64,000 nt of DNA from Tubulanus polymorphus (lineage: Eukaryota; Animalia; Nemertea). Positions 15,401-18,400 of the stretch are shown piece after piece. Location of the stretch: positions 5,332,001 through 5,396,000 of the forward strand of contig NC_134029.1 of the NCBI RefSeq assembly GCF_964204645.1. Reading direction: 5' to 3'. Made by a program: the position numbers and the translations under genes. How positions within the stretch are numbered: position 1 is the first letter of the stretch; each line of letters opens with the position of its first letter. Below the pieces are notes generated by a model. That model did no database searches. It had not been told where the DNA came from and saw only the letters and a list, made by a program, of their open reading frames with translations.

Positions 15401-18400
15401 GTTGTGAGAACGTAATTGGAAAAAGTTTTTACTTAAATAAAAAGCCAGGTGTGAATGAAGGTAGGACGACACGACGTTGAAGCCTTTCAAAGCGAGACCA
15501 TGCACGGCACGTCCTACCTGACATTCTTCGCAGGTTTCCGTCGCGAACTACTGCGTTTATTGCCACCACTGTTGGTAAAATAACCATCATTAGAAAAAAT
15601 AACAATACACAAATCGAGCAAGACAGAACCAGAAAAAAATGACAATATCACGTAATTGATTAACGACGATATAGAAATTAAATCAATTTAATGCACTAAA
15701 CACCGAGTGTCTTAAACGTGTTACTTCGATGGCACAAAATACATTTTTATTGGCTATATTCAATGAATGTCGCACTAAAAAGCCTGTCTGGCCGGCGTAG
15801 TACTCTATTTATCAACGCCAACTGGCTGATTAACTCAGAACTACTGATTGTTGCTTTATCGAGATGTTATTACGGCCTGGTAGTTGATAGAAAAATGGAG
15901 GAATGCGTGGTAATTTTTGCGCCTGCTCAAGGGGTCTCAGTGTACTGAGTGTTTACTGCGCAGCTGATGCAATATATAACTGCTGGCGCATACGTTGTTT
16001 TTATATCATGTGACTGATATATCTGATTCTAAATATATAAAACCTTGCTATTCAAATCCTGGTTTCTCAAGTATGGCTGCCACGCTCTGCAAGGTGTTAT
16101 CAGTAACAAGTTAAATATTCCATCAGTTAATATTTCATTGAAATATCATTCAAAATCAGTAATCAATGGCAAAACCCACAGTTACGTCTTTCCATCCTTG
16201 TACATATGGAAAAAAAAAATAAAACATCATATCAGTATTTTTCAGGATTTTGTATTGGAAATCAGCAATGGTTGGCAACTCTGCTCAAGACACTGTCCAT
16301 GAGAGACAAAAACCGAAACGTTGCAGAAATAAATATATTTGTATTTTTTTAATCTTTAAAATCCATGTTTTATCAAGTATTTATATTCGCCACATTGTTT
16401 TGATTGTGAAGCCTGCCAGACATTGGCTTTTTTGTCTGATCTATTTAACGGTTGAATCTGTTCTCTTTCTCCTTAACCTTATACTTAATAGCTACAGTGA
16501 AATCTTTTCTTTGTAGCAATTAAGCATCAGTTTAAAGAAGTCTACTGATGAACCACAATCGCAGCACTGGTGACCATCAAAGGTTGTTTTAATGCAGACA
16601 GCATTCTATATTTCATACACAGCAATTTAGCCTACAATTGTATCAGGGCTATATAATAATACGTAACAGCCATGAACATTGATGTATCATTATGACTGAG
16701 AATAGCCCGGTATTCAAATCGTAATCGACGTTTAAAAAAGTAGTGTATTTCAATAGCGCATTTTCATTGCGATTGTGCTATATAACTAGAAAGCAGACAT
16801 AAAGAAATATAAAAGGGCCACCTAATAGAAAGGCGTACCTAATACATCCGGTATGTTTCCGCTGAGGCTTTTTCTGCGAAGCGTTATTACTGACAACGAA
16901 AAGCAAAAATCACGATCAAACATATTATACGCATACAATCTTAAAAACACAAGGCTGAAAATACAGTTAGTAGAATATTAACCCTTTCAGTGCATCTACA
17001 CCGCAATGCGGTGTATGAATCGGTGATGGATTTTGCTAGTACACCACACTGCGGTGTATTGATGTAATTAGTGATTAGTTTTTTTCTCTATTGAAAGATG
17101 GCAGCACCTGTCAAACAGTGAAATATTAGTAACTAACGACGCACTATAGTGATATTCCCGTTATTCAACACACTAGGGTGGAATTTTTCAAAATTTTTAA
17201 ATTATCTCCAGCACTATAGGGTATTGATTAGTCAGCACTGAAAGGGTTAATGAAGTTAACGTCTCTTTGAGAAAGAATATGCCGGGTAGAAGTAAAATAG
17301 TGTAAATATTTGGTCACAGGTGGCACCACTGGGCTTTCGTCAAGACTAAATTGCAAATTGTGTTACTTGTTCCAAAAACAATTCATATACCTAATTATTA
17401 TAAACAACTCAACTTAGTAGAATCTAGGGTCCTTACAGATCAGGGAATCCAAAGTTCCCCGTTATATTTCCATGATTTTCCAAAAAATCTTTTATCAAAC
17501 TATAAGTTCTCCCTGTTTATCAAGAAAAGGGTCAGAATTCACTAGATTTTACCTGCAAGGAAAGTCTGGCATTCCTGATTTGTAAGAACCTTTCAACGAA
17601 AAGATTTTTGATGCATATCCTGCATATATATTGTCGTCAAGTAATAAGAAATGAAATATCCGTCGGTAAACGATGGATTAAGACAGGCTGCTGGCCCCAG
17701 ACGACAGTAGCTTATACCTGACTGAATCGACAACGCTTCGTAAATTCATACGAGAACAATCGGTACAGCGCAGACCGTCTCGATGCTTTCGAATTAAGAA
17801 ACTCCTACAGTTTCACAATTAGATCAATGAAATCGAGAAAACATAGGCCGGGAAAACATTCTCTTTTAAAACCAGTCATGATGCAAAATGCGGAACCACA
17901 GACTAGCTAGGAATCGTTTGAATTGGCAAACTATTTTAGAATTTTAAAATATTCATTCATAAATAATAAGAAAATATTTTTTCGTGAAATTCGAGAATAT
18001 ATTATTGATTAAAATCATTTAAGAAAGATTTCGGAAAGAATTTGTTAACTTGTAAATCAAAGGGTTAGGTTTAATAATCGATGGTTATGAAATACTTGAA
18101 TTGGGCAATAATGAAATGAGTTGAGCAGAAAATTCTTACACTGAAATCTAGAGAAAGACTACGATTCCTACCTGACTTTCTTAGTGCCGCGTATTGATAT
18201 ACGCCTGCTAGCATCATCATCACTGTCGCTGTACGTGGCGCATGATGATAATTTCCTGCGTCTAGCCGAACCACCCGTGTTCTTCCTCGGACGGCCAGCA
18301 CCTCGCCGCGTCGTGGAGCCGCGTTGGTTTCGGCTGAAATAAGACGCACAAATCAGGTTTCGAATTTCAGAAAACCAGCAAAATTAAAATACAACGTTTT

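Follow-up and report, generated by a model that had tools for sequence, protein, structure and literature searches.

The question raised by this locus, a window of 64,000 nucleotides, is whether alternative splicing rewrites the basic half of a histone-contacting motif in CHD1 and, if so, how many versions of the motif result. The gene is CHD1 of the nemertean Tubulanus polymorphus, its chromodomain exon (13069-13293) being 100% identical to the CHD1-like protein of this species. Mapping of the longest CHD1 isoform gave 33 GT-AG junctions on the minus strand, from 22856 to 505, with the final part of the protein unmapped. With both annotated cassettes skipped, intron 13864-18171 (4308 nt) is the longest of the mapped CHD1 introns; the next-longest outside it measures 1392 nt. 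Its earlier description as the longest CHD1 intron is thus borne out as far as the 33 mapped junctions go. The first-pass annotation proposed that this intron hides three cassette exons, at 17718-17804, 16839-16889 and 15518-15568. For these candidates the minus-strand coordinates, the AG/GT ends, the phase (2/2), the absence of in-frame stops and the peptides were all confirmed, as was the V or I codon followed by AG with which they and the upstream exon end (GTCAG three times, ATTAG once). The word hidden does not apply to two of these candidates, as 15518 and 16839 are already in the public annotation: RefSeq isoforms X1, X2 and X5 carry 16839 followed by 15518, isoform X3 carries 15518 alone and isoform X4 carries neither. 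Such alternative RefSeq models generally rest on transcript alignments. Comparison of these isoforms upholds the proposal that alternative splicing changes which basic stretch precedes (V/I)S-YKE. Rfam gave no match within 13500-18500.

The exons on either side of the intron define the motif. The upstream exon (18172-18333, minus strand), found in all five RefSeq isoforms and in the spliced contig of run X4, encodes an acidic tract and then a basic half. The downstream exon (13730-13863, minus strand), present in all annotated isoforms, contributes the last base of a Ser codon, the conserved Tyr (YKE) and, after an acidic linker, the first part of chromodomain 1. With the cassettes skipped, the end of exon 18172 places Arg at -12/-11 and -7 and Val at -2 from the Tyr. 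The resulting R-x3-R-x6-Y lines up, in the same register, with residues 126-137 of yeast Chd1 (own numbering on chain 5o9g) and also with the CHD1 chain of 9ear, which we take to be human. The conserved Tyr upstream of chromodomain 1 aligns with Y137 in the ChEx segment of yeast Chd1, which bears out the earlier comparison with ChEx; yeast R126 and R130 are presumably the ChEx anchors. In the displayed outgroup sequences the motif directly follows an acidic tract, as it does at the end of exon 18172. The end of exon 18172 is therefore the ancestral half and the cassette an added second one. The earlier match of the 15518 peptide to the vertebrate motif holds as a resemblance, the peptide fitting the 9ear register at -9/-8, but not as positional homology, which belongs to the end of exon 18172.

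The cassette at 15518-15568 (minus strand, 51 nt, phase 2/2, net charge +6) is a real, spliced-in exon, which preserves the frame, has canonical splice sites and rebuilds R-R-K..V ahead of S-Y. It is carried by isoforms X1, X2, X3 and X5. In run X4, position 13863 is joined to 15518 with CT..AC ends at a depth of 51.2, and 15568 runs directly into exon 18172; a 5362-nt spliced contig of the run places exons 13730-13863 and 18172-18333 51 nt apart. Because the contig makes both joins, 18172 to 15568 and 15518 to 13863, the dominant path in run X4 includes 15518 only. This run was treated as RNA-like for its spliced contigs (none of the four runs is recorded as RNA, and runs X1, X2 and X3 gave unspliced pieces), and its independence from the RefSeq annotation is not assured. 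Skipping of 15518 in Tubulanus is represented by a single RefSeq model, isoform X4, the RNA-like run showing inclusion alone.

Splice sites were scored with a matrix built from 30 other CHD1 introns, by which the 86 frame-preserving candidates in the intron were ranked, and chance levels were estimated from 1000 simulated introns. Exon 15518 ranks seventh of the 86 with 5.0 bits, its acceptor being weak (0.0 bits). Peptides were scored with a motif matrix from 21 outgroup proteins against a background of 2043 intronic peptides. The end of exon 18172 reached 5.7 bits and 15518 reached 4.9 (0.3% and 0.7% of the intronic peptides score as high); 17718 and 16839 came to -4.7 and -10.6 bits (7% and 14%). 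Across their donors (15512-15528 and 18166-18182), exons 15518 and 18172 are identical at 16 of 17 nt, six intronic bases included; both donors are modest at 5.0 bits, and the likeness could reflect shared regulation or conversion. An origin of 15518 by duplication of the 18172 end is not claimed, the identity being marginal (21/48, p=0.02 uncorrected).

The second cassette, 16839-16889 (minus strand, 51 nt), is annotated in isoforms X1, X2 and X5, always together with 15518, and never adjoins the tyrosine exon in any annotated isoform. It has the best splice sites in the intron (rank 1 of 86, 20.4 bits), and a 20-bit candidate arises in only 6 of 1000 simulated introns. Its fit to the outgroup motif is poor, no counterpart was found outside Tubulanus, and no run X4 contig covers it though a contig bridges the place, a weak null since contigs drop rare variants. 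Collectively, 16839 is quite likely a real exon and probably a minor one in the sampled RNA. Upstream of its acceptor by 88 nt ends a 275-bp element (16977-17251) whose 17-nt terminal inverted repeats are perfect and carry TTAA at either outer end, by which signature we take it to be a piggyBac-type MITE. The element appears to be very abundant, because the contig depth summed over it exceeds that of single-copy sequence by a factor of thousands.

The third candidate, 17718-17804 (minus strand, 87 nt), is in none of the five isoforms and has a depth of 0 in run X4. Coverage by this run is absent over 17514-17987 though a contig bridges the place, which is again weak since contigs drop rare forms. 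The candidate ranks third of 86 by splice score (9.3 bits), yet splice sites as good occur in 688 of 1000 simulated introns and are thus at chance level. Sites of this grade combined with a V/I-S end arose in 41 of 1000 simulations, and with R/K at -8/-7 in addition in 8. Its peptide has three acidic residues against zero or one in the conserved inserts described below, and shares no 6-mer with any of 586 fetched proteins. It is a pseudo-exon, a rare exon or a decayed cassette, and we doubt that it belongs to either of the latter two kinds. The candidate encodes CxxC and 16839 encodes HxxC, which together would make a C-C-H-C set; a role for such a Cys pair was set aside as probable coincidence, as none of 360 anchored proteins has CxxC here. 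Contigs of runs X2 and X3 match 17525-17829 and 18161-18455 but are unlike the sequence between them (17830-18160), which suggests that one haplotype has another, longer segment between the 18172 donor and the 17718 acceptor.

These results bear on the earlier proposal that the motif comes in four versions through three or four exons that exclude one another, which we consider very improbable. The proposal can draw on the splice scores, by which all three V/I-S-ending candidates fall within the top 7 of 86, on the Arg at -8 shared by 16839 and 17718, on the equal length of 16839 and 15518, and on the rarity of the full 17718 fit in simulation. However, mutual exclusion is contradicted at the level of annotation by the inclusion of 16839 and 15518 together in three of five isoforms, and four versions are not obtained when 16839 is annotated only stacked on 15518 and 17718 lacks transcript, annotation and homologue support. 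As 16839 never meets the tyrosine exon in the annotated isoforms and 17718 is unsupported, two basic halves rather than four come to stand before the Tyr. Mutually exclusive exon clusters are known from the Dscam type, to which several similar-ended exons in one long intron bear a likeness. Unlike in that type, the CHD1 exons show annotated co-inclusion, unequal lengths (51, 51 and 87 nt) and weak mutual similarity: 16839 and 15518 agree at 19 of 48 positions (p=0.08), and pairwise identities of the exon ends span 10-21/48 with p from 0.02 to 0.90, uncorrected over six pairs. The exons lie more than 800 nt apart, and among the 19 inverted repeats found there is no strong docking-type repeat except the transposon ends, which form the sole perfect one; weaker pairings may exist.

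The case for 15518 extends well beyond Tubulanus. At the protein level, an equivalent insert occurs at the same codon in 22 named species, comprising two nemerteans, one brachiopod, 16 molluscs and three annelids, with the insert boundary drawn from protein alone in 13 of the 22. The inserts are 15-25 aa long with a net charge of +6 to +10, and reach 33 aa in the annelid Paralvinella on a single gene prediction. All 22 have V/I two residues ahead of the Tyr, an Arg between -8 and -10, zero or one acidic residue, and R-R-K at a fixed distance from the Tyr across lengths of 15-33 aa; beyond charge, R-R-K and V/I, the sequences share little and lengths vary. Molluscan inserts have the Arg register shifted by one or two residues. 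In every one of the 22 species the upstream half, too, retains V/I and an Arg between -7 and -10, and matrix scores show no difference between cassette and upstream ends (Wilcoxon p=0.97). Lower matrix scores had suggested that the upstream half decays where only inclusion is seen; this was rejected, as a one-residue register shift explains much of the effect and V/I and Arg are kept throughout. The 33-aa insert of Paralvinella palmiformis looks either like a stack of about 17 and about 16 aa, similar to that of Tubulanus, or like a mis-prediction.

Both forms are annotated in nine species of three phyla (nemerteans, brachiopod and molluscs), namely Tubulanus, Lineus, Lingula, Aplysia, Physella, three Mytilus and, from different assemblies, Biomphalaria glabrata. 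The isoform pairs of these species differ by exactly the insert, and the junction residue switches R/S, K/N or C/S, as predicted by a phase-2 intron before an exon starting with T or C. Over the 25 residues preceding the Tyr, the charge is -1 to +1 in the skipped forms and +9 to +11 in the included forms. Oysters have inclusion only in all fetched records, and 12 further molluscan species have the skipped form only in fetched records. Across the lophotrochozoan proteins, 99 of 105 have the anchor and their charge is bimodal, with 38 between -4 and +2 and 61 between +6 and +11. The protein sets are redundant, sorted by id lists and mostly made of cluster representatives.

Outside Lophotrochozoa, 255 named proteins were collected, 215 with the anchor and 40 without it. 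No such insert was found in the 215 anchored proteins when screened by charge: 214 carry no more than +3 over the 25 residues preceding the Tyr, the lone exception being a partial Branchiostoma protein (+7) with no doubled unit. An Arg about 7-11 residues before the Tyr is common to both Tubulanus forms, to all 22 inserts and to all 215 outgroup proteins. Rare outgroup isoforms could be hidden, because the outgroups are mostly arthropod and vertebrate cluster representatives. In expanded isoform sets for Thrips, Cloeon, Leptosia, two crinoids and a scorpion, none differs at the cassette codon; Thrips CHD1 has a different optional stretch further upstream. As far as protein alignments allow, a basic cassette is conserved at the same codon and phase across four lophotrochozoan phyla, and the intron at this codon together with the cassette most likely dates to the lophotrochozoan ancestor.

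What the cassette does can be proposed from its position. We lean, with modest confidence, towards a skippable basic exon that swaps the arginine half beside the Tyr and whose inclusion likely strengthens binding to the acidic patch. The exon sits inside the Ser codon just before the conserved Tyr; skipping would leave the ancestral arginine half beside the Tyr, and inclusion would install a new one in a valid Arg-Tyr register. Inclusion would also move the acidic tract 15-25 residues away and add 6-10 positive charges. The more avid ChEx-like anchor might then hold CHD1 on the H2A-H2B face or outcompete other acidic-patch binders. Such an effect on acidic-patch binding is a prediction from sequence, and the choice of form is probably regulated by tissue or stage.

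Two other accounts of the exon deserve consideration. It may simply supply an added basic patch that serves nuclear or nucleolar targeting, DNA or RNA binding, or relief of N-terminal autoinhibition; V/I and Arg at the exon end would then be kept because the ChEx motif must stay unbroken. This is possible, though it carries clearly less weight with us than a swapped anchor. Conservation concerns charge (+6 to +10) more than sequence, and the human CHD1 N terminus, which is reported to have basic and acidic patches and to repress DNA binding and ATPase activity stepwise, fits such a role. Against it, R-R-K keeps its fixed distance from the Tyr in every insert despite the variation in length, and the constitutive N-terminal exons already hold other basic runs. 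A near-neutral history, in which one form dominates per lineage, the other is annotated splicing noise and both halves are equally good, seems unlikely. The inclusion-only pattern of oysters and of run X4, the skipping-only pattern of the 12 other molluscan species and the similar scores of the two halves on the outgroup matrix are in line with it. However, both halves are intact in all 22 species and both forms are annotated in nine species of three phyla; near-neutrality is disfavoured because a dispensable half should presumably have decayed over this span. The swapped anchor has a bolder extension, in which a tissue-regulated switch has set the acidic-patch grip of CHD1 throughout Lophotrochozoa since their common ancestor and the stack of two or three cassettes in Tubulanus acts as a graded dial. 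This is speculative and we regard it as rather doubtful; if true, the dial (15518, 16839 and perhaps a rare 17718) would be the first splicing that rebuilds the histone anchor of a remodeller.

Conserved frame-preserving cassettes and microexons are known to add linear motifs to disordered regions of chromatin proteins, LSD1 exon 8a being an example. Exons of this type and the CHD1 cassette are alike in being short, symmetric, skippable and located in a low-complexity N-terminal stretch. In contrast to the LSD1 type, the CHD1 cassette re-creates the motif half that it interrupts, so that both CHD1 forms keep a full motif, and it is kept in four invertebrate phyla. Further, anchors of Arg plus Tyr on the acidic patch are described for HELLS (R510/Y518, the Arg 8 residues before the Tyr), SSX1 (R167-R169/Y177) and the SnAc of SMARCA4, all with basic residues about 8-11 before the Tyr as in CHD1. 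Another close system is the yeast ChEx, a recently discovered contact with the nucleosome (PDB 7TN2; Nodelman et al. 2022, as cited in PMC12834501, PMC12390759, PMC10542350 and two preprints). The two occupy the same site before chromodomain 1, with Arg -11, Arg -7 and Tyr of the skipped form against residues 126, 130 and 137. Unlike yeast ChEx, the Tubulanus gene has an intron in the codon before the Tyr, and the optional exon can, on the gene models, displace the arginine half. In this literature, Y137 packs into an H2A pocket and the ChEx arginines dominate binding; the role of ChEx is argued, being presented as a step in activating sliding (PMC12834501) or as a competitor for the acidic patch (PMC12390759, PMC10542350).

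The isoforms are already public as unlabelled variants, and a conserved motif-altering cassette is a known kind of event. In the literature searched (titles and the starts of abstracts, with most subscription journals outside reach), neither the exon nor its conservation is described and no report was found of splicing that rebuilds such an Arg/Tyr motif. A cassette predicted to rebuild a histone anchor across four phyla appears to be new. It offers a clear case of an exon that supplies one half of a linear motif a second time and leaves the motif complete either way. A natural isoform pair that differs only here and is kept across several phyla also provides ready variants for binding and remodelling assays, and oyster, mussel and Aplysia transcriptomes could reveal where each form is used.

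Other parts of the window offer some minor observations. Isoform X5 lacks a second optional CHD1 exon, which lies close to the C terminus (1847-2005, 53 aa). Lineus, Lingula, Saccostrea, Pecten and two crinoids have optional stretches in a comparable position, so that this exon may be an older conserved cassette. The exon at 19185-19268 encodes a conserved N-terminal motif, W..P..YG.RRS.R, also present in yeast Chd1. An equivalent stretch of 28-29 aa is missing in some isoforms of Sinanodonta and of the scorpion Centruroides, which would make 19185-19268 a possibly skippable exon that carries another basic motif. Outside CHD1, long open frames judged by eye point to what we take to be a TPR-like gene (~25300-30200, plus strand), an RFC-subunit-like exon (38053-38358, plus strand) and an Ig-domain receptor tyrosine kinase of the PDGFR/VEGFR type (~41200-51500, minus strand).
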